Both the position numbers and the translations under genes were made by a program. 64,000 bases of DNA from Acidobacteriota bacterium (GTDB lineage: Bacteria > Acidobacteriota > UBA4820 > DSQY01). Position 1 is the first letter of the stretch. Every line of letters starts with the position of its first letter. The stretch lies in NCBI GenBank assembly GCA_049967655.1, contig JBMFSH010000013.1, positions 1-64,000 of the forward strand, written 5' to 3'. Positions 6,308-64,000 of this stretch are shown here, piece after piece. The notes beneath the pieces were generated by a model. It ran no database searches, was not told the DNA's origin, and was given only the letters and a program-made list of their open reading frames with translations.

Positions 6308-7561
6308 CTAGTCCCGATTTTTCCTCAAGAAGGGCGGAGTCTGGTAGATCTCGTAATCCTTGCCGCCCGAGGCTCCTTCGCCCTGTCCGAAGAGCTGCGT
6401 GCCCTTGCCTTTGCCGCCCCTCAGGTAGCCGGTCGGCCCCGGTCCGCCGGCGGGCAGCGCGGAATCCACGCCCGGCACCGATCCGAAGGCGGCGTCCGAA
6501 GCCCCTGCAGCGGCCACCGCCGGCGCGGGGACGGCTAAGGGAGTGCGCTGCTTCATGGGTTTCACCTCGGCCGAGTCGAAGGCAGCGGCCACCACCGTGA
6601 TGCGGAGCTCCTCGCCCAGCTTTTCGTCCAGGCTGGTTCCGAAGAGCACGTTGACGTCCGCGTGAGCCTTGCTCCGCACGTACTCGCAGGCCTCCTTGAC
6701 CTCGCGAAGGCCCAGGCGCCGGTCACCCGTGAAGTTGATCAGGATGGACTTGGCGCCGAGGATGGAGGCATCTTCGAGCAACGGATTCTGAGCGGCCTTC
6801 TCGGCGGCCACGAGGGCCCTGTCCTTGCCGATGGCGGAGCCCATCCCCATGACGGCGCGGCCGCCAGCGGAGAGGACCGTGCGGGCGTCCTCGAAGTCCA
6901 GGTTGATGATGCCCGGACGGGTGATAAGGTCCGAGATGCCCTGGACACCCTGGCGTAGCACGTCGTCCGCCGTCGTGAAGGCCTCCTCCATGGTCACCTC
7001 CTCGGGGAGGTTGGGCAGGAGGTTGTCGTTGGGAATGACGATGAGCGTGGCCGCCGCCTCCATGAGCTGGTCGAGGCCCAGCCGGGCGTTGGTCTCGCGG
7101 CGCTTGCCTTCCCAGGAGAAGGGCCGCGTCACGACGGCCACCGTGAGGGAGCCGGCCTCGGAGGCCAGGCGCGCCACCACGGGAGCCGCGCCCGTTCCCG
7201 TCCCGCCCCCCATGCCGGCGGCGATGAAGACGAGGTCCGCTCCCTGGAGGTGCTCGACGAGAAGGGCCGTGTCCTCGATGGCGGCCTGCTCGCCGCGCTC
7301 GGGGTTCCCGCCCGTCCCCAGGCCCCGCGTGAGCTTCTGACCGATGGCGATCTTCCTGGGGGCCAAGCTTTTCTCCAGGTCCTGGTTGTCCGTGTTCACG
7401 GCGATGAACTCCACCCCCGTGAGCCCCGCGGTGATCATGCGGTTGACGGCGTTTCCCCCGGCGCCGCCCACCCCAATCACCTTGACGCGCACCCGCCTCG
7501 CGCCATCCGCCGATTCTTCATCCTCACTCATGATGAAGCGCAGACCGTTGTTCTGATCCAT
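6308..7561 (-). CDS. ftsZ: Cell division GTPase FtsZ
   Basis: [28 protein letters not shown] tubulin signature, C-terminal TPPFLRK peptide. Confidence 0.98.
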
Positions 7562-7611
7562 CGCAAACCCCCTTTCCGAGTGGGTCGACCTCCGTTTCGC
7601 CGCCGTCCGAT

Positions 7612-8835
7612 TCAGACTATGTCCTTGATCTGGGACAAGAGTTTTCTGAACATTCCGCCTTTCTTCCGGGGACCGCCGCCGCGCGCCTCCAGCTTCGCCC
7701 CGTAGAGCGCCAGCCCCACCGAGGTGGCGAACATGGGTGAGGCCACGATGTTGGTCAGGCCCACCACCTCCATGGGTTCGCCCACCCGGACCTGGTGGTC
7801 GAAGATGCCCTCCGCCACCTCAGGGAGGCCAGTCAGGCCGGCTCCTCCGCCGGTGAGCACGAGTCCCGCGTTGATCGTCTTGTCGAGTCCGGCGCCTCGG
7901 ATCTCCTCGAAGAGGAGCTGGAACAGCTCCTCGGCCCTCGGCTGGAGGATCTCGGCCAGCCTGGAGCGGGGTACCATGCTCGATTTCTTCCCCGCCAACG
8001 CCTGCACCTCCACCATGTCGTCCTCCTGGATGAGGCTGGTGAGGGCGCAGCCGTACTTCTTCTTGAGAATCTCCGCGTCCATGATCCCCGTCTTCAACCC
8101 CACCGCCAGGTCGTTGGTGAAGTGTTCGCCACCGATGGGGATGACGTGGGTGTGCCAGATGGCCCCCTTTTCGAAGACCGAGATGCCCGTGGTGCCGTGG
8201 CCGATGTTCACCAGGGCCACGCCGATCTCCCTTTCGTCGGCCGTCAGCACGTCGTAGGAGTCGGCCATGAGCCCCAGAACGAGCTCGGCCACCTCGATGC
8301 CGCACCGGTTCACCACCGTCGTGAGGTTCTGCAGGCTTGTGATGGAGCCCGTGATGATGTGGACGTTGGCTTCGAGGCGGCTACCGGGCATGCCGAGGGG
8401 CTGGCTGATGCCGTCCTGGTCGTCGACCAGGTACTCCTGGGGAAAGGTGTGGAAGATCTGTTGGTCCGCGGGGAAGCTGATGGTGCGAGAGCCCTCGAGC
8501 ACCCGCTGGACGTCTTCCCTGTTGATGACGCGGTCCCGGTTGGTGACCGCGACCACGCCGCGGCTGTTGAATCCGCGGACGTGGCAGCCTCCCACGCCGA
8601 CGTAGGCCCGCTCGACGGAGTAGCCGGCCATCAGCTCGGCCTCTTCCACGGACGCTTTCACGCAGGCCACCACCTCGTCGAGGCTGGCCACGATGCCGCG
8701 CCGCATGCCTCGGGCGTCGGCCTTCCCAATGCCCGTCACCTCCAGTGCGCCGTCCTGCCGGGCCTTGCCGATGACCGTGGCCACCTTGGAGGTACCGATG
8801 TCAATACCCACCACGTGACCCGCTTCCTTAGCCAT
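7612..8835 (-). CDS. ftsA: Cell division protein FtsA
   Basis: [10 protein letters not shown], actin-like fold motifs, VLTGGGA; lies between ftsQ and ftsZ. Confidence 0.96.
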
Positions 8836-9673
8836 GCTGCGCTCCTCCCTTGTCGTCGCCGGCGGTGGCCGGAGGCGAGCCATCCGAAGTTTCGGGCGGA
8901 CCTAGGACCACCTTGTCCGCCCAGCGGACGTCCAGGGTCCGCCGATCCGGTTCGTAGGCCGCGACCCAATTCTTGGAGGCCAAGAACCTCTGCCATTGAT
9001 TCGGGAAATCGTTGCCGGAGACGATGAGTTTCCAGTGGTCCGAGGTGGTGAGGAGGTACCCTCCTCCGGCGCCCGCAGAGGCGATGGCCGTCACCTGGCC
9101 CGCGAGGCCCAACCGGAGCATCTGCGCGATGAGGTCCTGGACTTGCAGGTCACCGGGGTCCAGGTCGGAGAGCGTGAAGACGCCGGCCACGCCGGGAACG
9201 GCCGGCCATGAGGCCCCCTCGCCGTTGATTTCGAAGACTCCCTGCTTGGCGTTCACCGCGCAGAGCACGTCGCTCTCCTGCGCCTCCACGATGAGGGTGT
9301 CGGGAAGGTGCTTCCGGCACAGGAAGCCCTTCAACCAGGGGAAGGCGCTCAGCCGTTCGGAGACGTCGGAGGGCTTGAGCTCGAGCAGGTTTTGGCCGCG
9401 CAGGTCCCTCAGGGCGTCCAGGAGAGGGGCCGTTTGGTGGTGCCGCAAGCCGACCACCTCGATGTGCTGGACCGAGAAGGCCCGGTCCGAATGGAGGAGG
9501 CTCCAGCAGGTATCGAGGAGCGCCGAGGTGAGGACGATGGCGGCGGTGACCAGCACCAGCCGGGCCATCCGTCTGAGCCAGCGCTTCCGCGCCTTGCTCC
9601 GAAGGGGCGACGGAGGAGGAGCCCAGTCCCTGGCCACGGCCCGGGAGGGGTGAGCTGGGAACCCTCGATTCAT
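8828..9673 (-). CDS. ftsQ: Cell division protein FtsQ/DivIB
   Basis: Basic N-terminus, single TM, POTRA-like FSVQHIEVVG...FPWLK...LPDTLIVE, C-terminal LDVRW; dcw position. Confidence 0.8.
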   Translation of the reverse strand: MNRGFPAHPSRAVARDWAPPPSPLRSKARKRWLRRMARLVLVTAAIVLTSALLDTCWSLLHSDRAFSVQHIEVVGLRHHQTAPLLDALRDLRGQNLLELKPSDVSERLSAFPWLKGFLCRKHLPDTLIVEAQESDVLCAVNAKQGVFEINGEGASWPAVPGVAGVFTLSDLDPGDLQVQDLIAQMLRLGLAGQVTAIASAGAGGGYLLTTSDHWKLIVSGNDFPNQWQRFLASKNWVAAYEPDRRTLDVRWADKVVLGPPETSDGSPPATAGDDKGGAQHG

Positions 9674-11052
9674 GGCCTTCCCTCCATGCCCGCCACGATC
9701 TGTTCGCCGATGTTGGTGATGGTCCCAGCGCCCAGGGTGAGCACCAGGTCCCCGGGCCTGATGAGCGGGAGGACGAACTCGGGTAGCTCCTCGACCGCCG
9801 GACAGAAGTGGACCTGGGTCCGGCCCAGCTCCTTCATGCGGTCCGCCAAGGCCGCCCCCGTCACACCGGCGATGGGGGGCTCGCTGGCGGCGTAGACCTC
9901 GGTCACCACCACCAGGTCGGCCTCCGACAGCACCGATGCGAAGTCCGCGATAAGGGCCGCCAGCCTGGAATAGCGGTGGGGCTGGAAGAGGACCACGAGG
10001 CGGCCCTCTCCGGCGGTCCGCCGGGCCGCCTCGAAGGTGGCCCTGATCTCCGTGGGATGGTGGCCGTAATCGTCGTAGACCCTCACTCCCCCGGCCTCTC
10101 CGCGGAACTGGAACCGGCGGTCCGCGCCCGGGAAGGTGGCGAGGTGCTCCCTTTGGGTCTCCAGCGGCACCTCGAGTTCGTCGCAGACCGCCAGGGCGGC
10201 GAGGGCGTCGAGAACCACGTGCCGGCCGGCTTGGGGCAGCGAGAAGAGGCCTCGATCGCTCCCTCGAACGCTCAGCCTAAAGCGCTCCCCGGGTCCCTCG
10301 GAGGGCGCGCTCTCGGCGAGGAAGTCAGCCGGGGGTCGCAACCCGTAGGTCACCGCGCGTCGTTTGAGGCGCGGCAGGAGCCCCCTGGCGTTGGCGTCGT
10401 CGCTGCAAAGGATGCAGGCCCCGTAGAAGGGCACCTTGTTGGCGAACTGGAGGAAGGCCTCCACCACGTCGGAGAGCGCGGGGTAGCAGTCCACGTGCTC
10501 CCAGTCGATGTTGGTGACCACCGCGAGGGACGGGGAGAGGAGCAGGAAGGAGCGGTCCGATTCGTCCGCCTCAGCCACGAGCAGGTCGCTGTGGCCCAGA
10601 CGGGCGGAGGCGTCCAGGGTGGAAAGGCGACCGCCGATCACCACCGTCGGGTCCATGCCGGCCCCGTGCAGGAGGTGAGAGATCATGGCCGTGACCGTGG
10701 TCTTGCCGTGCGAGCCGGCGACGGCCACGGAGGTCTTCATGCGCATGAGCTCGGCCAGCATCTCGGCCCTCGGGATGACCGGGATGCCCAGCCGGCGGGC
10801 CTCCTCGATCTCCGGGTTCAGGGGTGAGACGGCAGAGGAGTAGACCAGAACTTGGCCGTCGCCGAGGTTTTCGGCGCGGTGGCCCACGGCGATGCGGGCT
10901 CCCCGGGCGGCGAGCCGGCGGGTGACGGGGGACTCCTTGAGGTCTGAGCCGCTCACGGTGAAGCCCATGTTGAGGAGCACCTCGGCGATGCCGCTCATGC
11001 CGATTCCGCCCACTCCCACAAAGTGGACCCGCTGGATTCCGAGGAGCTTCAC
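9670..11052 (-). CDS. murC: UDP-N-acetylmuramate--L-alanine ligase
   Basis: VHFVGVGGIGMSGIA, AGSHGKTT, EADESD, DDYGHHPTEI; GTG start overlaps the murG stop. Confidence 0.96.
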   Translation of the reverse strand: MKLLGIQRVHFVGVGGIGMSGIAEVLLNMGFTVSGSDLKESPVTRRLAARGARIAVGHRAENLGDGQVLVYSSAVSPLNPEIEEARRLGIPVIPRAEMLAELMRMKTSVAVAGSHGKTTVTAMISHLLHGAGMDPTVVIGGRLSTLDASARLGHSDLLVAEADESDRSFLLLSPSLAVVTNIDWEHVDCYPALSDVVEAFLQFANKVPFYGACILCSDDANARGLLPRLKRRAVTYGLRPPADFLAESAPSEGPGERFRLSVRGSDRGLFSLPQAGRHVVLDALAALAVCDELEVPLETQREHLATFPGADRRFQFRGEAGGVRVYDDYGHHPTEIRATFEAARRTAGEGRLVVLFQPHRYSRLAALIADFASVLSEADLVVVTEVYAASEPPIAGVTGAALADRMKELGRTQVHFCPAVEELPEFVLPLIRPGDLVLTLGAGTITNIGEQIVAGMEGRP

Positions 11053-12143
11053 GTCTCCCTCCCGAGACGGAGCAGGAGCTCCGCGATGTCGCCCGCCGCG
11101 TTCGGCCTCGCCAGGGTCACCAGCGCTTGCACCATCCTCCTGCGGACGTCCGGATCGGCCAGGGTGATAAGGGAGGTCATGAGGGAGGCGGAATCCAGAT
11201 CCTGCTGGAGGACGCACAAAGCCCCGCCCATCCTTTCGAGCCCCTGGGCGTTCATGGCCTGGTGGTCTCCGGCCGCTTGCGGGAAGGGGATCAGCAAGGC
11301 GGGGCGGCCCACCATGGCCAGTTCGGCGAGGGTGGTGGCGCCGGCCCTGCACGCCACGGCGTGGCACCAGGCGTACTCCTTCTCCATCTCGAAGAGGAAG
11401 GGCTCCACCCGGGCGGAAAGGCCGGAACGCTCGTACGCGCCGCGCACCTCCGCCAGCTCCTCAGCGCCGGTCTGGTGGACGATCTCGATGCCGCCGGGAA
11501 AGGATTTGAGCTCCGGCAGGAGCTGGACCATGGCGGCGTTGATGGCGTGCGCTCCGCGGCTCCCTCCGAAGACGAGCAGACGGAAGGGCCGCGCGGGCGG
11601 TCTCTCGGCTCCCACTTCGGCCAACTGCGCCCGGACCGGATTACCCAGGAACAGGCCCTTGCCCCCGAAGGAGGCGAGCGTCTGCGGGAAGGCGGTCACG
11701 ACGCGCGCCGCCAGGTGGCCCAGGAGGCGGTTGGCCATGCCCGGACTCACGTTTTGTTCGAGCAGCACCAGCGGAACGCCCGTCAGCCCCGCGGCTAGAG
11801 ACGTGGGAAGTGAGGCGTAGCCCCCGACGCCCAGCACCACGTCGGGGCGGAAGCGCAGGAGGGTCCAGAGGCTGGAGGCCAGGGCGAAGGGGAGGACCAG
11901 CAGGGCGCGAAGCCGCCGGAGGAGGTTAACGCCGGCGAAGCCGTAGACCGCCAGTCCCTTGAAGGAGAAGCCATACCGCGGCGCAAGCGAGGCCTCGATC
12001 CCATAGCGGCCTCCCACGAAGAGGATCTTCGAGGCCGGGGCCTCCTTGAGCACCGCCTGGGCAGCCGCCAGGCCCGGGAAGAAGTGCCCTCCCGTCCCGC
12101 CTCCCGCCACGATCATCCTGAACTCTCCCTTCTCCCGCATCAA
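11049..12143 (-). CDS. murG: Lipid II GlcNAc transferase MurG (start may be 12116)
   Basis: AGGGTGGHFFPG, LLEQN, GNPVR, GGSRGA, RAGATT. Confidence 0.95.
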   Translation of the reverse strand: MMREKGEFRMIVAGGGTGGHFFPGLAAAQAVLKEAPASKILFVGGRYGIEASLAPRYGFSFKGLAVYGFAGVNLLRRLRALLVLPFALASSLWTLLRFRPDVVLGVGGYASLPTSLAAGLTGVPLVLLEQNVSPGMANRLLGHLAARVVTAFPQTLASFGGKGLFLGNPVRAQLAEVGAERPPARPFRLLVFGGSRGAHAINAAMVQLLPELKSFPGGIEIVHQTGAEELAEVRGAYERSGLSARVEPFLFEMEKEYAWCHAVACRAGATTLAELAMVGRPALLIPFPQAAGDHQAMNAQGLERMGGALCVLQQDLDSASLMTSLITLADPDVRRRMVQALVTLARPNAAGDIAELLLRLGRET

Positions 12144-12194
12144 ACGCCGTCCGCCCTTCCCACTCCCGGCCCCATGGGCCCGGTGCCCGACGAG

Positions 12195-13283
12195 CTACTC
12201 GTACTGGCTCACGTTCAGAAGAATCCCGACGCCCGCCATGGTCACCACCAGGTTCGAACCCCCGTAGCTCAGGAGCGGTAACGGGAGTCCCTTGGTGGGC
12301 AGGAGGGTTAGAGTCACCATCATGTGGATGATCGCCTGGAGCACCACCCAAGCCACGATACCCATGGCTAGGAAGGCTCCGAAGGTGTCGGGGGCCGAGC
12401 GCATGGCCCTGAGTCCCCGGTAGCCGAAGAAGAGGAAGCCAAGGAGCACCGCCACGCTGCCGAGAAAGCCCAGCTCCTCGCCGATCATGGAGTAGATGAA
12501 ATCGGTGTGGGGCTCGGGTAGAAAGAGCAGCTTCTGGCTGCTGCCTCCCACCCACTTCCCAATCAGGCCTCCACTGCCCGCGGCGATGAGGGACTGCTGG
12601 GCCTGAAATCCCGCGTGCTGGGGATCGGAGCCAGGATTCATGAAGGTCATGAGCCTCTGCACGCGGTAGGGGCTCGAGAGGGCGAGGACCAGAAAGGCCA
12701 GGAGACCCACGGCGCCCATCGCGCCGAGCCATTTCCAGGGGAGTCCGGCGATGAGCAACACGGAGCCCAGGATGACGCCGAGCACCACCACGGTGCCCAG
12801 GTCGGGCTGGATGAGGATGAGAGCGGCGGCAAAGCCGAAGTAGAGGCCCAGGGGCAGCAGGACCTGGCCCCACTCCTTTCCCTCCCGGACGCGCTTCTCC
12901 AGCATGTAGGCGACGAACAGAACCATGACGAGCTTGGCGGTCTCTGAAGGTTGGATGGTGATGGAGCCGACCTTGATCCAGCGGTGGGAGCCGTTGATGG
13001 CCGGGCTCACCAGGGCGAGAAGGAGCATCAGGATCTCCAGGGCGAGGAGGGAGAGAATGACCTTGCGCTCCTTCCAGAAGGTGTAGGGCACCCGCAGCAT
13101 GGCGAGCATGGCCACCAGGGCGATGGCCGCCCAGATGCACTCCCGGTAGAAGAAGTAGTTCGGGTTCCCCTTCCGCGTGAGGGCCAACACGGCCGAGCTT
13201 GAATAAATCATCACGAGGCCCATGGCGAGGAGCCCGAGGGTGATGACCAGCAGCGATCGGTCGAAGCGCAGGAGGCGGCTCAT
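12195..13283 (-). CDS. ftsW: Peptidoglycan glycosyltransferase FtsW
   Basis: RWI..IQPSE.AK, QPDLGT, LPEPHTDFI, GEELG, PTKGLPLPLLSYGGS. Confidence 0.96.
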   Translation of the reverse strand: MSRLLRFDRSLLVITLGLLAMGLVMIYSSSAVLALTRKGNPNYFFYRECIWAAIALVAMLAMLRVPYTFWKERKVILSLLALEILMLLLALVSPAINGSHRWIKVGSITIQPSETAKLVMVLFVAYMLEKRVREGKEWGQVLLPLGLYFGFAAALILIQPDLGTVVVLGVILGSVLLIAGLPWKWLGAMGAVGLLAFLVLALSSPYRVQRLMTFMNPGSDPQHAGFQAQQSLIAAGSGGLIGKWVGGSSQKLLFLPEPHTDFIYSMIGEELGFLGSVAVLLGFLFFGYRGLRAMRSAPDTFGAFLAMGIVAWVVLQAIIHMMVTLTLLPTKGLPLPLLSYGGSNLVVTMAGVGILLNVSQYE

Positions 13284-14620
13284 GGCGTCATGGCCTCCCG
13301 GACCCAGGCCGTGAACTGTTCCCCCCTGTCTTCGAAGTTGCGGAACTCGTCGAAGGAGGCGCAGGCCGGAGAGAGCACCACGCTATCTCCCGGCGAGGCC
13401 ATGGCCAGGGCTGCGGTCGTGGCCTCGCGAAGGGTGGCGTAGCTCTCCACGGGCAACGCCCCCCTGAAGGCCTGAACCACCTTGTCGCGCGCGGCGCCGA
13501 AGGCGATTACGGCCCGGCAGCACCTCCGCGCCTCAGGAACCAGGCTCGCCCAGTCGGCCCCCTTGTCCTTCCCGCCGAGCAGGAGGATCACGCCCGAGCG
13601 GAAGGCCGTGAGGGCCTTGAGCACGGCGTCCGTGTTGGTGGCCTTGGAGTCGTTGAAGACCGCGGCTCCGTGCACCTCCCCGACCCGTTCGAGCCGGTGG
13701 GGCAGCCCCCTGAACCGGCTGAGGGGCTCGGCGAGCGCCCCCTCCGGAACGCCGGCGCAGCGCGCCGCGAGGCAGGCCGCCAGGGCGTTTTCCAGGTTGT
13801 GCACGCCGGGGAGCGGCAGATCCTTCAAGCGGAAGAGAAGCTCTTGGCCCCCGCTTCGGCGCCAGAGGGCCTGGCCCTCCCGGACGAAGGCGCCCTCGGG
13901 CAGTTCGCCGACGGTGGCGAAGGGCACGTGTATGGAGGAGGTAGCGGCGCCGAAGGCGGCCACGGCCGGATCCGTGGTGGAATAGACCGCAAAGTCCGAT
14001 GGGCCCTGGTTCTGGAAGATCCGGCCCTTGGCGGCCTGGTAGTCCTCGAATCGGGCGTACCGGTCCTGGTGGTCCGGCGTGATGTTGAGGAGGATGGCCA
14101 CGTCCGCCTTGAAGCGCTCCAGGCTTTCGAGCTGGAAGGAGGAGACCTCGAGCACGAACCAGGTCTTCTCGGTGGAGCCATCCACCATCTCGCAGAAGGC
14201 CCGCCCGAGGTTCCCGCCCGTTCGCACGTCGGAGAAATGGGCACCCAGCAGCTTGCCGAGGAGCGTGGTGGTGGTGCTCTTCCCATTGGACCCTGTGACG
14301 GCGGCGATGCGGCCCTTGGCGTGGCGGAAGCCCCACTCGATTTCGCCGATGACGGGGATGCCCCTCTCCAGCGCGGAACGCACCAGCGCCGAGCGGCGGG
14401 GAACGCCCGGCGAGAGGATCAGGCACTCCATCCCCTCCAGGAGCCCGGGTGACTCGCTGCCTCCGTAGAAGACCAGCCCCATCTCCAGAAGCTTCGAGAG
14501 GTCGAGGGCGAGGTCCGCGGTGGTCCGCTGGTCGCACGCGGAGACCTGGTGCCCTTGGCGCAGAGCCAGGTGCGCCGCCCAATAGCCCGAAGTCCCCATG
14601 CCCGCCACGAGAATTCGCAT
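13280..14620 (-). CDS. murD: UDP-N-acetylmuramoyl-L-alanine--D-glutamate ligase
   Basis: MRILVAGMGTSG, TGSNGKSTTT, LEVSSFQLE, NDSKATN, SPACASFDEF. Confidence 0.96.
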   Translation of the reverse strand: MRILVAGMGTSGYWAAHLALRQGHQVSACDQRTTADLALDLSKLLEMGLVFYGGSESPGLLEGMECLILSPGVPRRSALVRSALERGIPVIGEIEWGFRHAKGRIAAVTGSNGKSTTTTLLGKLLGAHFSDVRTGGNLGRAFCEMVDGSTEKTWFVLEVSSFQLESLERFKADVAILLNITPDHQDRYARFEDYQAAKGRIFQNQGPSDFAVYSTTDPAVAAFGAATSSIHVPFATVGELPEGAFVREGQALWRRSGGQELLFRLKDLPLPGVHNLENALAACLAARCAGVPEGALAEPLSRFRGLPHRLERVGEVHGAAVFNDSKATNTDAVLKALTAFRSGVILLLGGKDKGADWASLVPEARRCCRAVIAFGAARDKVVQAFRGALPVESYATLREATTAALAMASPGDSVVLSPACASFDEFRNFEDRGEQFTAWVREAMTP

Positions 14621-59614: not shown

Positions 59615-60292
59615 ATGAGAAGAGATGAGGTTGCCAAGGGGCGGGGACGGGGAAAATCGCTTCCCGCTTTGGCGGCCGGCGCGGCGGTGCTCTGCCTGCT
59701 GCTCGGGGCGGCAGGAGCCCGCGCGCTGAAAGGGTGCCCCACCCACCCCGCCGGCCTGGCCGTGCCGCGAGGAGATCTCCCCGGCCTACCCAACTTCGCC
59801 CGGGTCTCCGACGGGCTCTACCGGGGCGCCCAGCCCACGCGGGAAGGGTTCGAGGGCCTGAAAGCCATGGGGGTCCGAACGGTCATCAACCTTCGGAACC
59901 ACCACAGCGATGCCCCCCTTTTGGCGGACCTGGGCTTTCGGTACGTGGAGATTCCGTGCGACGCTTGGCGCATGGAGGACGCCCCGGTGGTCCTCTTCCT
60001 GAAGCTGGCCACCGACGAGGCCTGCCAGCCGGTCTTTGTGCACTGCCAGCACGGTTCCGACCGCACCGGGATCATGGTTGCGGCCTACCGCGTGGTGGTT
60101 CAGGATTGGGACCCCTCGCTGGCGGAAGCGGAGTTGCCGAACTTCGGCTTTCACCCGGTCTTTCTGAACCTCAGTCGCTACGTCGCGGGCCTGGATGGGG
60201 CCAGTTTGCGCGCACAGGTGCGGGAGATGCCCGATCCGATGATTCCCGCCGGGCCTCGGCTCGCCCAACCGGCCCCCGGAGGCTTACCATGA
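59615..60292 (+). CDS. Cys-based protein-tyrosine/dual-specificity phosphatase with N-terminal signal or anchor
   Basis: NFARV...LYRGAQP, VRTVINLR, VFVHCQHGSDRTG (HCx5R); hydrophobic N-terminus. Confidence 0.88.
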   Translation: MRRDEVAKGRGRGKSLPALAAGAAVLCLLLGAAGARALKGCPTHPAGLAVPRGDLPGLPNFARVSDGLYRGAQPTREGFEGLKAMGVRTVINLRNHHSDAPLLADLGFRYVEIPCDAWRMEDAPVVLFLKLATDEACQPVFVHCQHGSDRTGIMVAAYRVVVQDWDPSLAEAELPNFGFHPVFLNLSRYVAGLDGASLRAQVREMPDPMIPAGPRLAQPAPGGLP

Positions 60293-60738
60293 GGCACAGG
60301 AGCCGAGGTTCCACGACCTTCCCCGCCCTGATTTGGCTGCTGGCCCTGTTGGCGGTGGTGCTGTGCCTGCCCCTGCTCTTCCTGGGGGCGATCTTCGTCC
60401 TCTCGGCCTTCCACCCCGACGCGGTGGCGCAGGGCAAGAGCCTCCCCAGGGCGGCGATCGGTGGAATCCTCCTGCTGGGAGGCCTGCTGCTGGTTGCTCT
60501 GGCCGTGGTCCTCGCCCGCAATGCCATGCGGGACAACGGCCGGCCGGGGGATCTCTCCGGTGGCGTGGCCGGGGGGCAGGAGCCGCCGGGAGAGATCCAT
60601 CTCAAGGCGCTCAACTGCCCGCACTGCGGCGGCCAGGTGGATGCCTCCACGGCGCGCCTGAATCCCGAGGGGACGCTCACCCTCACCTGCCCCTACTGCA
60701 AGGGCTCCTTCCTGATCCAGGAGGAGCCAAAGTGGTGA
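60289..60738 (+). CDS. Two-TM membrane protein with C-terminal zinc ribbon
   Basis: Two hydrophobic helices, then CPHCGG...CPYCKG...EEPKW; ATGA overlap with the phosphatase gene. Confidence 0.75.
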   Translation: MRHRSRGSTTFPALIWLLALLAVVLCLPLLFLGAIFVLSAFHPDAVAQGKSLPRAAIGGILLLGGLLLVALAVVLARNAMRDNGRPGDLSGGVAGGQEPPGEIHLKALNCPHCGGQVDASTARLNPEGTLTLTCPYCKGSFLIQEEPKW

Positions 60739-60869: not shown

Positions 60870-62408
60870 ATGAAGAGACTGTTCGTGGCCTTGGTGGCCG
60901 TGGCGGTGGGCCTCTCCGTCCTGGCCGATTACCGGTTCGAGGTGCCGCAGAACCGCAGCGTCGTCGAAGTGAATCGCGATGCCTCCATCACCATTCGGTA
61001 CGCCATCACCTTCCGGAATCAGGGACAGCCGATCGACGTCATCGACGTGGGCCTCCCCGACGGCCAGTACGATCTGAAGGGGGTGAAGGCGGACCTGGAC
61101 GGGGCGCCCCTGACGGATATCCGGCCCTCTTCCTACCTCCAGTACGGGGTGGAGGTCCACCTAGGCGAGAGGGCCATTGCCGCGGGCTCCGAGGGGACGC
61201 TGCACCTCTCGGCCGTGGCCAAGAACAGGGTGTTCCCCGACAGCAAGGACCCCTCCTACGCCAGCCTTGAATTCAGCCCCACTTGGTACGGCTCGCAGTA
61301 CACCTCGGGGACCACTCTCCTGGTCTGCAGCTTCATCTTCCCGGAAGGCGTGGGGCCTGACGATCCCCGTTACCACGGTAGGCCTTTCACCTCGGCCCGG
61401 GTGGAGCAGGGCCGGGTCATCTACACGTGGGACCGGCCGAACGCCTCTCCCTCTCGCCAATACACCTTCGGGGCATCGTTCCCGGCCAAGGTCATGGAGC
61501 GTCTGGCCGCCGTTCCGAAGGGGCCGGGGCCGGCAGCCGCGATAGCGGCGGCCATGGGGACGCTCATCCTCGGCGCCTTGCCCTGCGTCTTCGTGGTCGC
61601 CTTCTTCGGCCTCTTCATCCTGGTGATCGTCCAGTCCCGGCGCCGGCGCCTCCAGTACCTGCCGCCCAGCATCGGGATGGAGGGAGTGGAGGTGCGGAGG
61701 GGGCTGACGGTGCCCGAGGTGGCCGTCCTCATGGAGGAGCCCGTGGACAAGGTGATGGCCCTCCTCCTCTTCGGAATGATCCGCAAGAACCTCGTGAAGG
61801 TCGTGGGGCGATCGCCCCTGAAGCTGGAGCTGGTACCCGGGGAGTCCCCGGCCGCGGACTACGAGCAGGCCTTCGCCAAGGCCGTTCAGGACGACGGACG
61901 AATCAGCGAGAAGGAGGCGGTGGCGGTCCTGACGGATCTCATCAAGCGGGTCCAAGAGAAGATGAAGGGCTTCAGCCGGAAGAAGAGCGTCCTCTACTAC
62001 CAAGAGATCATGAGGAAGGCGTGGGAGCAGGTGGGGAGCCAGGACTACGCCCAGGCCTTCGAGTGGATGCTCCTGGACCGTGAGTTCGGTCAGCGGGCCG
62101 CCCAGCGTTTCGGGAGCAACCCCATGCCGCTCCCCGTCTGGTGGGTGCCCCTGTACACCGGCCAGACGGCCGGCGCTACGGTAGGTGGGGCGCCCGCTCC
62201 GAGCCCCGTGGCGGCGGCCAACACCGTTGTGACGGGGCTGGAGGGGTTCGCCCACGACCTGGTGAACAGCGTCCCCGGCCTCGCCACCCAGGTCACCGAG
62301 CGGACGAATCCCGTGCCGCAGTCTTCGGGGAGCGCTTCGGGAGGCGGCTGTGCCTGTGCGTGCGCTTGCGCCGGCTGCGCCTGCGCCTGCGCGGGAGGCG
62401 GAAGATGA
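60870..62408 (+). CDS. Membrane protein (DUF2207-like exported domain) with a C-terminal Cys/Ala repeat tail
   Basis: Signal peptide, beta-rich domain, TM segment followed by RRRR, helical domain, end SGGGCACACACAGCACACAGGGR*. Confidence 0.85.
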   Translation: MKRLFVALVAVAVGLSVLADYRFEVPQNRSVVEVNRDASITIRYAITFRNQGQPIDVIDVGLPDGQYDLKGVKADLDGAPLTDIRPSSYLQYGVEVHLGERAIAAGSEGTLHLSAVAKNRVFPDSKDPSYASLEFSPTWYGSQYTSGTTLLVCSFIFPEGVGPDDPRYHGRPFTSARVEQGRVIYTWDRPNASPSRQYTFGASFPAKVMERLAAVPKGPGPAAAIAAAMGTLILGALPCVFVVAFFGLFILVIVQSRRRRLQYLPPSIGMEGVEVRRGLTVPEVAVLMEEPVDKVMALLLFGMIRKNLVKVVGRSPLKLELVPGESPAADYEQAFAKAVQDDGRISEKEAVAVLTDLIKRVQEKMKGFSRKKSVLYYQEIMRKAWEQVGSQDYAQAFEWMLLDREFGQRAAQRFGSNPMPLPVWWVPLYTGQTAGATVGGAPAPSPVAAANTVVTGLEGFAHDLVNSVPGLATQVTERTNPVPQSSGSASGGGCACACACAGCACACAGGGR

Positions 62409-62469: not shown

Positions 62470-63816
62470 ATGGGGCTGAGAGACCTCTTCAGGAGAACCG
62501 AGCGGGTCAAGGCGGGACTCTACCCGGGAACCCTCGTCGTGGAGGGGACCGCCCACCGGATTCACCTCCGGGTCGAGCCCTCGGGAGCCGGGATCCTCAC
62601 CCTCGACGCCAGCCGGATCCTCCACCTGAACCCCACCGCGGCGGAGATGGTGAAGCACCTGGTGGACGGGTTGAGCGAGCCCGAGACGGTGGAACTCATG
62701 GCCCGGCGCTATCGCGTGAAGCGCGCCGTATTGGAGCCGGACCTCTCGCGCATCCTCCAGGCGGTGCGCACGCTCTCCGCCACGGACCAGGTCTGTCCCC
62801 TGTCGGACCTGGGGATCGAGCTCATCGAACCCTTCTCAACCGCCATGAGCGCCCCGCTGCGCATGGACTTGGCCCTCACCTACCGCTGCCAGAACCGGTG
62901 CAGCCACTGCTACAACCAGGAGTTCAGGGAGGTCTCCGAGCTGGACACGGCAGGCTGGAGGCGGGTGCTGGAGGCCTGCGAGTCGGCGGGAATCCCGCAC
63001 GTGGTCTTCACGGGAGGCGAGCCCACGCTCCGCGACGACCTTCCCGTGCTGGTGGCCTACGCGGGAGAACTGGGGCTGGTCACGGGCCTCAACACCAACG
63101 GGCGGCGCCTGCGGGACGCCGCCTACACGGGGGCGCTTCGGGAGGCCGGTCTGGATCACGTCCAGATCACCCTGGAGTCGGCCGATCCAAGCCTCCACAA
63201 CGCCCTGACTCGATCCGACTCCTTCGAGGAGACCCTGGCCGGGCTCCGCGAGTCCAAGGCTTCGGGCCTCTTCACCCTGACCAACACCACGCTCACGCGG
63301 GTCAACCTGCCCGGCATCGAAAATCTCGTGGACCTGGTGGCCGCCGAGGGTCTCGGCACCTTCGCCGTCAACGGGATGATCTACTCGGGCAAGGGCAAGA
63401 GCTCGGGCATCGACCTCACCTCGCGGGAGGTCGTCCCCGTTCTGGAGACGCTGGCCCGGCTGGCCCGCGAAAAGGGTCTCCGCTTCGTCTGGTACACCCC
63501 GACGCGGTACTGCGAGCTGAACCCCGTGGAGATGGCGCTCGGCGTCAAGCAGTGCACGGCGGCCCGATTGAGCATGGCGGTCGAGCCGGACGGAACGGTC
63601 ATTCCCTGCCAATCCTATTACGAAGGCGTAGGCAACCTTCTGACCGATTCATGGGAGTCCATCTGGAACCACCCCCTCTGCCTCAAGCTCCGTCAGCCCC
63701 AGAAGCCCCTGCCCGAGTGCGAGGCCTGCGAGCACCTCAGCCTCTGCGGGGGCGGGTGTCCGCTGGAGGCTGCGCACCAGAAGCTGACCTGCCGCGAGGT
63801 GGCGAGCGGGGGGTGA
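62470..63816 (+). CDS. Radical SAM/SPASM protein with N-terminal PqqD/RRE-like domain
   Basis: LHLNPTAAEMV..L.DG...ET...MA.RY.V (PqqD-like); CQNRCSHC; FTGGEP; NTNG; SPASM C..IPC..GNL..CEAC-x5-C-GGG-C. Confidence 0.92.
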   Translation: MGLRDLFRRTERVKAGLYPGTLVVEGTAHRIHLRVEPSGAGILTLDASRILHLNPTAAEMVKHLVDGLSEPETVELMARRYRVKRAVLEPDLSRILQAVRTLSATDQVCPLSDLGIELIEPFSTAMSAPLRMDLALTYRCQNRCSHCYNQEFREVSELDTAGWRRVLEACESAGIPHVVFTGGEPTLRDDLPVLVAYAGELGLVTGLNTNGRRLRDAAYTGALREAGLDHVQITLESADPSLHNALTRSDSFEETLAGLRESKASGLFTLTNTTLTRVNLPGIENLVDLVAAEGLGTFAVNGMIYSGKGKSSGIDLTSREVVPVLETLARLAREKGLRFVWYTPTRYCELNPVEMALGVKQCTAARLSMAVEPDGTVIPCQSYYEGVGNLLTDSWESIWNHPLCLKLRQPQKPLPECEACEHLSLCGGGCPLEAAHQKLTCREVASGG

Positions 63817-63976
63817 GGGAGCCGCCGCAGGGCGAAGGGGAGCGGGGGAACGGGGAGGTTCCCCCGCGCGCAGGGCATCCCGCGCAAGGGCCGGGAGGAG
63901 CAGCGAGCCGGCGAAGCCGGTGAAGCGCCGAGGAGGGCCGGCCGAGGCCCTCCTCGGGGAGCGCCAGTGGCGCGAC

Positions 63977-64000
63977 GCGGGGGCGGGTGTCCGCTGGAGG
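63977..64000 (+). repeat. Exact 24-bp copy of 63746-63769, cut by the window edge
   Basis: GCGGGGGCGGGTGTCCGCTGGAGG at both positions. Confidence 0.8.

Follow-up and report, generated by a model that had tools for sequence, protein, structure and literature searches.

The tail-encoding locus

The DNA described here is a window of 64,000 nucleotides (nt) from an Acidobacteriota bacterium (positions 1 to 64,000 of contig JBMFSH010000013.1, assembly GCA_049967655.1). Near its end, two adjacent genes on the forward strand encode a membrane protein with a C-terminal tail of alternating cysteine and alanine (gene A) and a radical S-adenosylmethionine (SAM) enzyme with a SPASM domain (gene B), and it is proposed that the tail of protein A is a substrate of enzyme B. 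A gene for a small membrane protein (gene Z) precedes gene A. Gene B starts 62 nt downstream of A, a GGGAGG ribosome-binding site stands ahead of the ATG of B, and no terminator-like site was found on the forward strand of this intergenic region. The features of the locus are collected in Table 1.

Table 1. Features of the Z-A-B locus, in window coordinates (AF2, AlphaFold2; pLDDT, predicted local distance difference test score; TM, transmembrane; RRE, RiPP recognition element; RiPP, peptide made by the ribosome and modified after translation).
Feature	Position	Strand	Basis or remark
Gene Z, small membrane protein of 149 residues: two hydrophobic segments, then zinc-ribbon-like CPHC...CPYC and an ...EEPKW end	60289..60738	+	Translation
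Gene A, tail-bearing membrane protein of 512 residues, complete reading frame with stop	60870..62408	+	No Pfam or NCBIfam family
Signal-peptide-like N-terminus of A (MKR, hydrophobic core, VLA before DY)	60870..60926	+	Hydropathy segment 1-23; AF2 helix 2-18
Predicted extracytoplasmic beta-sandwich domain (residues 23-205)	60936..61484	+	AF2 pLDDT 88-98, all-beta
Predicted single TM helix (residues 221-261)	61530..61652	+	Kyte-Doolittle peak 2.98 over 221-258; one continuous AF2 helix
RRRR (residues 257-260), C-terminal side of TM helix	61638-61649	+	Part of conserved [RK]3-x-x-Y-L-P-P
Predicted cytoplasmic domain (residues 262-485), with YLPP motif next to the membrane, winged-helix-like unit, helical bundle	61653..62324	+	AF2 model
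T-N-P-x-P motif (residues 479-483), 11 residues ahead of first Cys	62304..62318	+	Conservation in 73 sequences
Ser/Gly linker QSSGSASGGG	62319..62348	+	Length and sequence differ among homologues; pLDDT <50 from residue 486
Cys/Ala core CACACACA-G-CACACA (residues 494-508; 7 Cys, 7 Ala, 1 Gly)	62349..62393	+	Exact form in 60 of 89 tails
Terminal GGGR and stop codon	62394..62408	+	G509-R512 invariant in 73 aligned sequences
Gene B, PqqD/RRE - radical SAM - SPASM enzyme of 448 residues	62470..63816	+	Pfam
PqqD domain of B (residues 44-99)	62599-62766	+	PF05402, 28.1 against cut-off 23.4
Radical SAM core of B	62875-63324	+	PF04055, 87.2 against cut-off 29.5
SPASM domain of B	63553-63732	+	PF13186, 38 against cut-off 21.5

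Sequence and conservation of the Cys/Ala tail

The tail occupies the last 23 codons of the open reading frame (ORF) of gene A (62340-62408), whose product ends in QSSGSAS-GGG-CACACACA-G-CACACA-GGGR before the stop. The residues fall into GGG (491-493; gga ggc ggc), CACACACA (494-501; tgt gcc tgt gcg tgc gct tgc gcc), a central glycine (502; ggc), CACACA (503-508; tgc gcc tgc gcc tgc gcg) and GGGR (509-512; gga ggc gga aga), followed by tga. Cysteine is encoded by TGT twice and by TGC five times, and alanine by GCC four times, GCG twice and GCT once, and because these codons are mixed the DNA is not a pure hexamer repeat. The initial annotation of this stretch had given the same codon series, had taken it for something other than a pure slipped repeat, and had described four plus three cysteines split by one glycine, flanked by GGG on both sides and placed after a Ser/Gly linker; the ORF agrees with it in each of these respects.

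In a six-frame translation of the 3,139,375-base genome (66.7% GC, 6.28 million residues), a run of at least three CA or AC units occurs at this tail alone. Expected counts from composition are 0.05 for (CA)3 and, for the complete pattern of seven cysteines and seven alanines, about 9e-13; the motif is not due to chance.

A word-seeded search of a database at 90% clustering, in which 8000 candidates were scored, returned 2202 homologues of gene A at E<=1e-3. The tail stands at the end of 118 of the 120 best homologues, which are 33-97% identical to A, while the two without it have a different end: the source of P0063 calls it 'partial', and P0095 has 303 residues matching just 56% of the query. 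In an alignment of 73 proteins, every position from C496 to R512 is invariant, alanines no less than cysteines; the sole substitution seen in the set is a threonine replacing the alanine ahead of the central glycine in P0096. The initial annotation had proposed aligning homologous tails for their spacing, and in these orthologs the tail is neither variable nor absent.

Eighty genome loci were retrieved, and the tail is read in frame in 78 of them; the copy in locus L010 is frameshifted and that in L071 is masked by Ns. The hosts are Acidobacteriota, many Anaerolineae, Cloacimonadota, Zixibacteria, Edwardsbacteria, Coatesbacteria, deltaproteobacterial metagenome-assembled genomes (MAGs) and one Thermoplasmatota archaeon, with two cultured species named among them, Bellilinea caldifistulae GOMI-1 of the Anaerolineae and Thermoanaerobaculum aquaticum. 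In two loci from deltaproteobacterial MAGs, gene A is split by a frameshift at L010 6420-7616 and gene B is likewise split in L005 and in L010 7603-8969; these frameshifts are either sequencing errors or marks of decaying copies.

A six-frame scan of 81 DNA sources found 89 tails, each different at the DNA level. Sixty have the canonical form CACACACAGCACACAGGGR, with an identical protein sequence in 60 of 60, and among these copies both cysteine, all four alanine, all four glycine and six arginine codons are used at each corresponding position. The variants comprise 16 tails with five CA units ahead of the glycine, 11 with a 3+4 arrangement, one with 2+4, and the archaeal tail, which is (CA)6 without the central glycine. 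Since the protein stays constant while every DNA version is distinct, selection acts on the protein, and extreme selection at this level is strongly supported. The same conclusion had been drawn in the initial annotation, and it now extends to a tail that is the same across phyla.

A Cys/Ala run without function, arising from slippage in a GC-rich DNA repeat or from a wrongly called frame, is a possibility that draws on the GC-rich local DNA, on TGC/GCC-like hexamers that could slip, and on the frameshifted copy in L010. It is refuted by the 89 of 89 DNA versions that are distinct and yet encode the same kind of tail, together with the uniqueness of the motif in the genome. With the motif kept in Acidobacteriota, Chloroflexota, Cloacimonadota and a Thermoplasmatota archaeon, hardly any credence is left for this explanation.

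Predicted topology and domains of protein A

Protein A begins with MKRLFVALVAVAVGLSVLA followed by DY, and the n/h/c pattern of this N-terminus is repeated in its relatives, with a putative signal peptide cleavage site between VLA and DY. Hydropathy gives two segments alone, 1-23 and 221-258, the second of which runs into RRRR at 257-260. Across the 73 sequences, the 15 residues that follow the helix contain 3.5 lysines and arginines on average, and those that precede it 2.4; the count is higher after the helix in 44 sequences and equal in 16. A signal peptide, one TM helix and a positive-inside bias are those of a single-pass protein with its N-terminus outside and its C-terminus inside, and the tail is predicted to lie on the inner side. 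This placement, which with the ectodomain outside holds whether the signal peptide is cleaved or uncleaved, makes it very likely that the tail is cytoplasmic, given the signal peptide, a single long helix of hydrophobic character and, behind it, the conserved [RK]3-x2-YLPP. The initial annotation had argued for a cytoplasmic tail from the signal peptide, the TM segment and RRRR. All three are present, the modeled helix at 221-261, the basic cluster and the R/K-rich linkers of the shorter relatives described below lend further support, and no in-silico line indicates a periplasmic placement.

An AlphaFold2 model of A built on the 73-sequence alignment has a mean pLDDT of 84.8. The helical domain extends up to residue 479, and residues 486-512 are disordered (pLDDT <50). 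Folded alone, the predicted cytoplasmic domain reaches a pLDDT of 81.4 and a predicted template modeling score of 0.79. When the whole model was searched with Foldseek, matches were to the ectodomain only, which resembles the N-terminal beta-sandwich of M1 aminopeptidases and LTA4H at E ~1e-8. No Pfam or NCBIfam model matched the protein (for Pfam, 0 families at E<=0.01).

Directly ahead of the linker, T476, T479 and P481 are invariant in the 73-sequence alignment, and N480 and P483 are at least 90% conserved. The TNPxP motif is a candidate recognition element, possibly the one bound by the RRE of enzyme B.

Two further features of the family were observed. Midway along the TM helix, a Pro-Cys pair, P237-C238 (61578-61583), recurs in many relatives with the consensus PCxxxxxF. 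Additionally, the homologues P0064, P0070, P0073 and P0080 (765-771 residues) have ~250 extra residues ahead of a TM helix at ~455-485 and the same tail, which implies an ectodomain that is enlarged or duplicated.

The radical SAM enzyme B

Among 35 sequences of B, the invariant cysteines are those of the CxxxCxxC motif (C140, C144 and C147) and seven more at positions 348, 362, 380, 417, 420, 426 and 430. By its Pfam domains and motifs, B is assigned to the radical SAM/SPASM peptide-maturase type, including a PqqD-like RRE. No NCBIfam equivalog cut-off is reached: the best score is to PqqE (TIGR02109, 118.6 against 381.35), the pseudo-SAM, NirJ2 and GeoRSP models come next after PqqE, and the scores to the ACGX and SkfB models are 71.2 against 400 and 64.8 against 300, respectively. 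B also lies below the cut-offs of the SkfB, StsB and AlbA models, and of those for GeoRSP, SbtM and mycofactocin, among others. The closest solved structures are those of PqqE (6c8v, 78.4 bits) and the sactisynthase SkfB (6efn, 58.9 bits). Prediction of a complex in which B was combined with SAM, three 4Fe-4S clusters and the C-terminal piece 440-512 of A gave a score of 0.03 and a mark of 0.32, values obtained without controls that are evidence neither for nor against binding.

The end of gene B is touched by a perfect 119-nt direct repeat with 231-nt spacing, which lies at 63746-63864 and 63977-64000 and runs on to position 64095 of the contig, C13 (3747-3865 and 3978-4096 in locus L083). 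It copies the final 71 nt of the radical SAM gene and 48 nt downstream, and may reflect either duplication in tandem or faulty assembly.

Linkage and probable co-inheritance of tail and enzyme

Clustering of the ORFs in the 80 loci yields four recurrent families, A (80 of 80), Z (70), B (68) and M (45), the last a class-I methyltransferase. Their usual order is Z - A - B - (B2) - M, where B2 is a second B-like gene. In 61 loci B begins on the same strand no more than 400 bp downstream of A; in one the distance is 809 bp, and in six B lies upstream of A. These six belong to the '3+4' group, which has two A paralogues (L090 from genome G008, L014, L016-L019 and L022). A further three loci stop too early to show a downstream gene.

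Within a set of 301 Acidobacteriota genomes, A is present in 38, and a B-like enzyme is present in 53 at E<=1e-50 and in 41 at E<=1e-80. At the stricter threshold B accompanies A in 37 of 38 genomes, the exception (G109) having an A that is cut by a contig end. Four genomes have B at this threshold and no match to A, and all four encode a tail protein at most 1.7 kb from B, which is a divergent '3+4' A in G008 and a short form of ~320 residues in G051, G065 and G138. The weaker B-like set comprises 12 matches at E 1e-50 to 1e-68, of which one contig-end fragment (G079) was omitted; within flanks of up to 5 kb, 0 of the remaining 11 have a tract of at least three Cx units in an open frame of at least 60 residues.

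In each short form a signal peptide and ectodomain are followed by the TM helix, a linker rich in Gly and Arg, and CACACVSCACACACAGGG...; in G051, G065 and G138 the sequence after the linker reads ...CACACVSCACACACAGGGGAGC... The ectodomains of the short forms and of A are homologous (hhalign probability 99.8%, E 5e-29, 204 columns), the cytoplasmic domain of A is missing, and the linkers after the TM helix are rich in arginine and lysine. In all 3 of the 3 genomes and all 3 of the 3 metagenome loci, a short form adjoins a B-like gene, which in the metagenome loci lies directly upstream. The metagenome loci come from a scan with the short-form alignment and were confirmed by its first sequence, so that the short-form neighborhoods number six loci in total. 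As the short forms keep the tail and B with the cytoplasmic domain gone, the tail is inherited along with the enzyme. No NCBIfam model matched the short forms or their B-like enzymes.

A HMMER scan of one short form against 1.84 billion representatives (50% clustering) returned 427 matches at E<=1e-3. A tract of at least three Cx units is present in 123 of the best 150, and many of the others look truncated. The common core of the short forms is CACACA(C)AGGG-x-AGC, with GGG[RGA] ahead of AGC and 20-40 further residues behind it, and many carry CPxC as well as AGC after the tail; the tail of the long form is the short-form motif ended at GGGR. Genome G051 has three short forms in tandem. In locus L091 (3013-6050, minus strand), three tandem short-form paralogues directly follow one B-like gene, each ending in ...CACACVSCACACACAGGGGAGCSKK..HSCP[LV]CS.

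A quick tree of 63 B proteins was computed by maximum likelihood after removal of rows without CxxxCxxC or of less than 400 residues; relatives in it share labels. In this tree the seven enzymes beside '3+4' tails form one clade with a Shimodaira-Hasegawa-like approximate likelihood ratio of 100, and the three short-form B proteins form a separate one. This grouping suggests that tail type and enzyme clade are jointly inherited. Because the '3+4' clade unites Chloroflexota with one Acidobacteriota genome (G008), it also suggests that the whole '3+4' cassette was transferred between phyla.

Comparison with known systems

The closest parallel is CrpC of Methanococcus voltae, an RRE - radical SAM - SPASM enzyme that installs ranthionine thioethers on the Cys-rich 28.8-kDa protein CrpA, and that has seven SPASM cysteines, three of them ligating AuxI, with one iron left free for a substrate cysteine (PMC13692751). 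Both systems combine an RRE, a radical SAM domain and a seven-cysteine SPASM domain with a neighboring Cys-rich protein, rather than a short peptide, that carries C-terminal cysteine repeats. CrpA differs in being soluble, with ten 17-residue repeats containing C-x-x-Q/D and an N-terminal leader-like region. In contrast, A is a membrane protein with a 15-residue Cys-Ala core at its extreme end, where the only possible acceptors are alanine or glycine. The best 25 of the 64 NCBIfam matches of B do not include TIGR04463, the family of CrpC. For CrpA the biological role is given as unknown and metal binding is suspected (PMC13692751).

B also resembles the sactipeptide and ranthipeptide maturases in its N-terminal RRE, CxxxCxxC motif, auxiliary clusters and association with Cys-rich cores, SkfB being its second-best solved relative. 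AlbA, CteB and PapB are maturases of this kind, and alanine is a known thioether acceptor in sactipeptides. Their substrates differ in that they are free peptides of ~30-60 residues that are cleaved and exported, whereas the carriers of the core found here are membrane proteins of 512 and ~320 residues. The PqqE/PqqD/PqqA system is likewise similar, as PqqE is the best sequence match of B and a PqqD domain is fused in B. PqqE differs in that it forms a Glu-Tyr C-C bond on a short peptide, while the tail of A has neither Glu nor Tyr, and the score of B falls far under the PqqE cut-off.

Protein A shares with DUF2207 proteins (PF09972/PF20990) a signal peptide, an extracytoplasmic domain, a TM helix and a Gly-rich C-terminal region, and some homologues of A are labeled DUF2207 by their sources. 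Membership of A in this family was rejected, as neither Pfam model matched it. The matches among its 73 relatives are all weak, three to DUF2207_C (best E 5.7e-4) and one to DUF2207 (E 0.0086), and an Atlas search of A gave a DUF2207_C-type cluster at 0.88, which is under the level that counts and serves as a lead only. No link between DUF2207 and radical SAM enzymes was found in the literature searches, and the DUF2207 papers listed there concern other matters, such as a stress phenotype of Streptococcus mutans.

The cytoplasmic domain of A (residues 262-485) resembles GOLPH3 and Vps74, membrane-proximal adaptors with the GPP34 fold (3kn1_A, Z 7.0 with 149 residues aligned; 2zih_A, Z 6.3 with 161 aligned; next structure 3.8). 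The identity is 8-11% and no sequence family matched. With Z below 8, this likeness is a fold lead and does not amount to family membership.

Proposed modification of the tail and alternative explanations

It is proposed that protein A is a single-pass membrane protein with a beta-sandwich outside and a helical domain inside, whose flexible Ser/Gly linker would present the CACACACA-G-CACACA-GGGR peptide in the cytoplasm. B would bind the C-terminal region of A through its PqqD-type recognition domain and modify the Cys/Ala core in cis, with the core still attached, in a RiPP-like maturation of a whole membrane protein. Z and M, respectively a zinc-ribbon membrane protein and a methyltransferase, would be accessory parts. 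An enzyme-substrate pair is suggested by alanines that are as invariant as the cysteines, by the co-inheritance of the tail with an RRE radical SAM/SPASM enzyme, and by the finding that none of the 11 weaker enzymes has such a tail nearby. The shared compartment, and co-inheritance that persists despite loss of the cytoplasmic domain, likewise point to the tail as the substrate. From these comparisons an enzyme-substrate relation between B and the tail appears likely, and the fuller reading, in which B acts on the tail as an in-cis substrate in the cytoplasm, irrespective of the chemistry involved, is given a probability of about 0.6.

Several observations weigh against this reading. The case for modification comes entirely from linkage and conservation, and the topology from hydropathy, charge counts and a structure model, in which the disordered tail is uninformative as to its conformation. 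B scores alike against PqqE, which forms a C-C bond, NirJ/AhbD-type heme enzymes, the pseudo-SAM family and sactisynthases. The TNPxP motif is absent from the short forms, and nine of the 80 loci have no B within at least 2.7 kb of A, while all nine genomes carry a B orthologue elsewhere (44-50% identity, E 1e-122 to 1e-142). Furthermore, invariant cysteines in a Cx repeat would also fit a metal or cluster site, in which the fixed small spacer could answer a packing need.

The tail could accordingly bind metal or an Fe-S cluster in unmodified form, or could carry sulfur or persulfide, and B would use it as a cluster or sulfur donor, a scaffold or an electron conduit, or would build a metallocluster on it. 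Seven invariant cysteines, their CxC spacing and the flexible cytoplasmic tether are in keeping with such a site, as are the conserved four-cysteine zinc ribbon of Z and the AGC and CPxC that follow the tail in many short forms. Strict co-occurrence with an Fe-S enzyme suits a dedicated partner as well as a substrate. However, the 60 canonical tails all have the same alanines while drawing on all four alanine codons, whereas in pure metal sites such as metallothioneins the spacer residues are expected to drift. B possesses a PqqD/RRE peptide-binding domain, which is typical of peptide-acting enzymes, and the number of upstream Cx units varies from two to six or more, which is better suited to a repeat substrate than to a defined cluster. 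For CrpA, metal binding is likewise suspected by the authors (PMC13692751). A metal site or sulfur donor in place of a modified core, which the initial annotation had put forward as its own alternative, is not favored and seems unlikely, though a modified tail could still bind metal.

If the tail is modified by B, the most plausible chemistry would be the formation of Cys-sulfur-to-carbon thioethers of the sactionine or ranthionine type onto the alanines, through which a flexible tail full of thiols would become a rigid ladder or hairpin. To our knowledge, the other Cys-rich cores beside RRE-SPASM enzymes have so far been thioether substrates, and it is by this analogy that thioether formation onto alanine is suggested; the assignment is tentative, and the odds are somewhat short of even. 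Modification of another kind, namely radical epimerization of every second residue, oxidation of the Cys-to-formylglycine type or C-methylation, would agree with the strict alternation kept across the superfamily, since a two-residue period suits epimerization. SPASM enzymes carry out many reactions, the radical SAM epimerase EpeE being an example, and with B under every family cut-off its reaction class is not fixed. None of these reactions requires seven invariant cysteines, however, and the Cys-rich cores known beside RRE-SPASM enzymes, that of CrpA included (PMC13692751), have so far proved to be thioether substrates, which leaves such reactions improbable.

A further alternative regards A as an oversized precursor, the tail being modified by B, methylated by M and cut off as a small RiPP product or a redox cofactor, as with PQQ or mycofactocin. 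The core does lie at the C-terminal end, as the mycofactocin core does in its precursor; PqqE and the mycofactocin maturase are among the NCBIfam matches of B, and M occurs in 45 of the 80 loci. On the other hand, only Z, A, B/B2 and M recur in the 80 neighborhoods, with no conserved protease or exporter, and the 120 proteins listed of 486 shorter tail-bearing matches have A-type sequence ahead of the tail and appear to be C-terminal pieces of A-type proteins, with no free precursor among them. These two results make release of the tail less likely. The ectodomain, TM helix and tail are moreover retained together in both long and short forms, which argues for a tail that works while anchored, and a released product is correspondingly doubtful.

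Radical SAM/SPASM enzymes with recognition domains are known for small peptide natural products, and we know of only a few cases in which such enzymes modify whole proteins. B is tied to a membrane protein whose 19-residue tail is unchanged in 60 canonical copies from several bacterial phyla, in a family with more than 2,200 long-form matches (90% clustering) and 427 short-form representatives (50% clustering). Should the proposal be correct, it would amount to a new modification, and possibly a new protein-derived cofactor, in uncultured anaerobes, in which a membrane protein's tail undergoes radical SAM maturation of the RiPP type. No description of this was found in the literature, nor of the tail motif or of an alternating-cysteine protein paired with a radical SAM enzyme. 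Since only one enzyme and one short substrate of defined sequence are involved, the proposal lends itself to a direct test, and the cultured B. caldifistulae GOMI-1 and T. aquaticum offer an entry.

More speculatively, the (Cys-Ala)n-GGG tail might be the precursor of a new protein-tethered cofactor or structure, either a poly-thioether ladder or a metal-sulfur centre at the inner membrane face, whose assembly would be aided by the methyltransferase, the zinc-ribbon partner and, in Anaerolineae, a dead paralogue of B. Coupled through one TM helix to a conserved outside-facing domain, it would form a new transmembrane redox, metal or signaling device common to many anaerobic bacterial phyla and some archaea. 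As a whole, this scheme has rather low odds.

Accessory and neighboring genes

The protein encoded by gene Z belongs to no Pfam or NCBIfam family. Its homologues stand directly upstream of A in 70 of the 80 loci, with the consensus C..CG...CPYCg..YQltEePKW. The methyltransferase M has its best NCBIfam match, below cut-off, in the DVU_1556 family. In the genome of the window, M lies past the window end at 65990-66691 of contig C13, ~2.2 kb downstream of B and after a UppP-like gene, and it shares 90% identity with M from the closest locus.

In Anaerolineae, B is followed by B2 (L056 9014-10279, L037 9032-10201, L062 9040-10212 and L073 3598-4812), which keeps the PqqD part, lacks CxxxCxxC and has one to six cysteines, with one to three in the four copies just listed. 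The missing motif and few cysteines mark B2 as a catalytically dead paralogue, which may act as a chaperone or scaffold.

A search for sequencing runs listed no RNA runs, and the word share of the DNA runs was at most 0.33. An arsenic-resistance-like operon downstream was considered as part of the system and rejected, since it does not recur in the 80 loci. This row of genes occupies 6866-13491 of locus L083 (about 66865-73490 of contig C13, beyond the window) and, judged by eye, comprises ArsR-, ACR3-permease-, ArsD-, ArsA-, ArsC- and ArsM-like genes.

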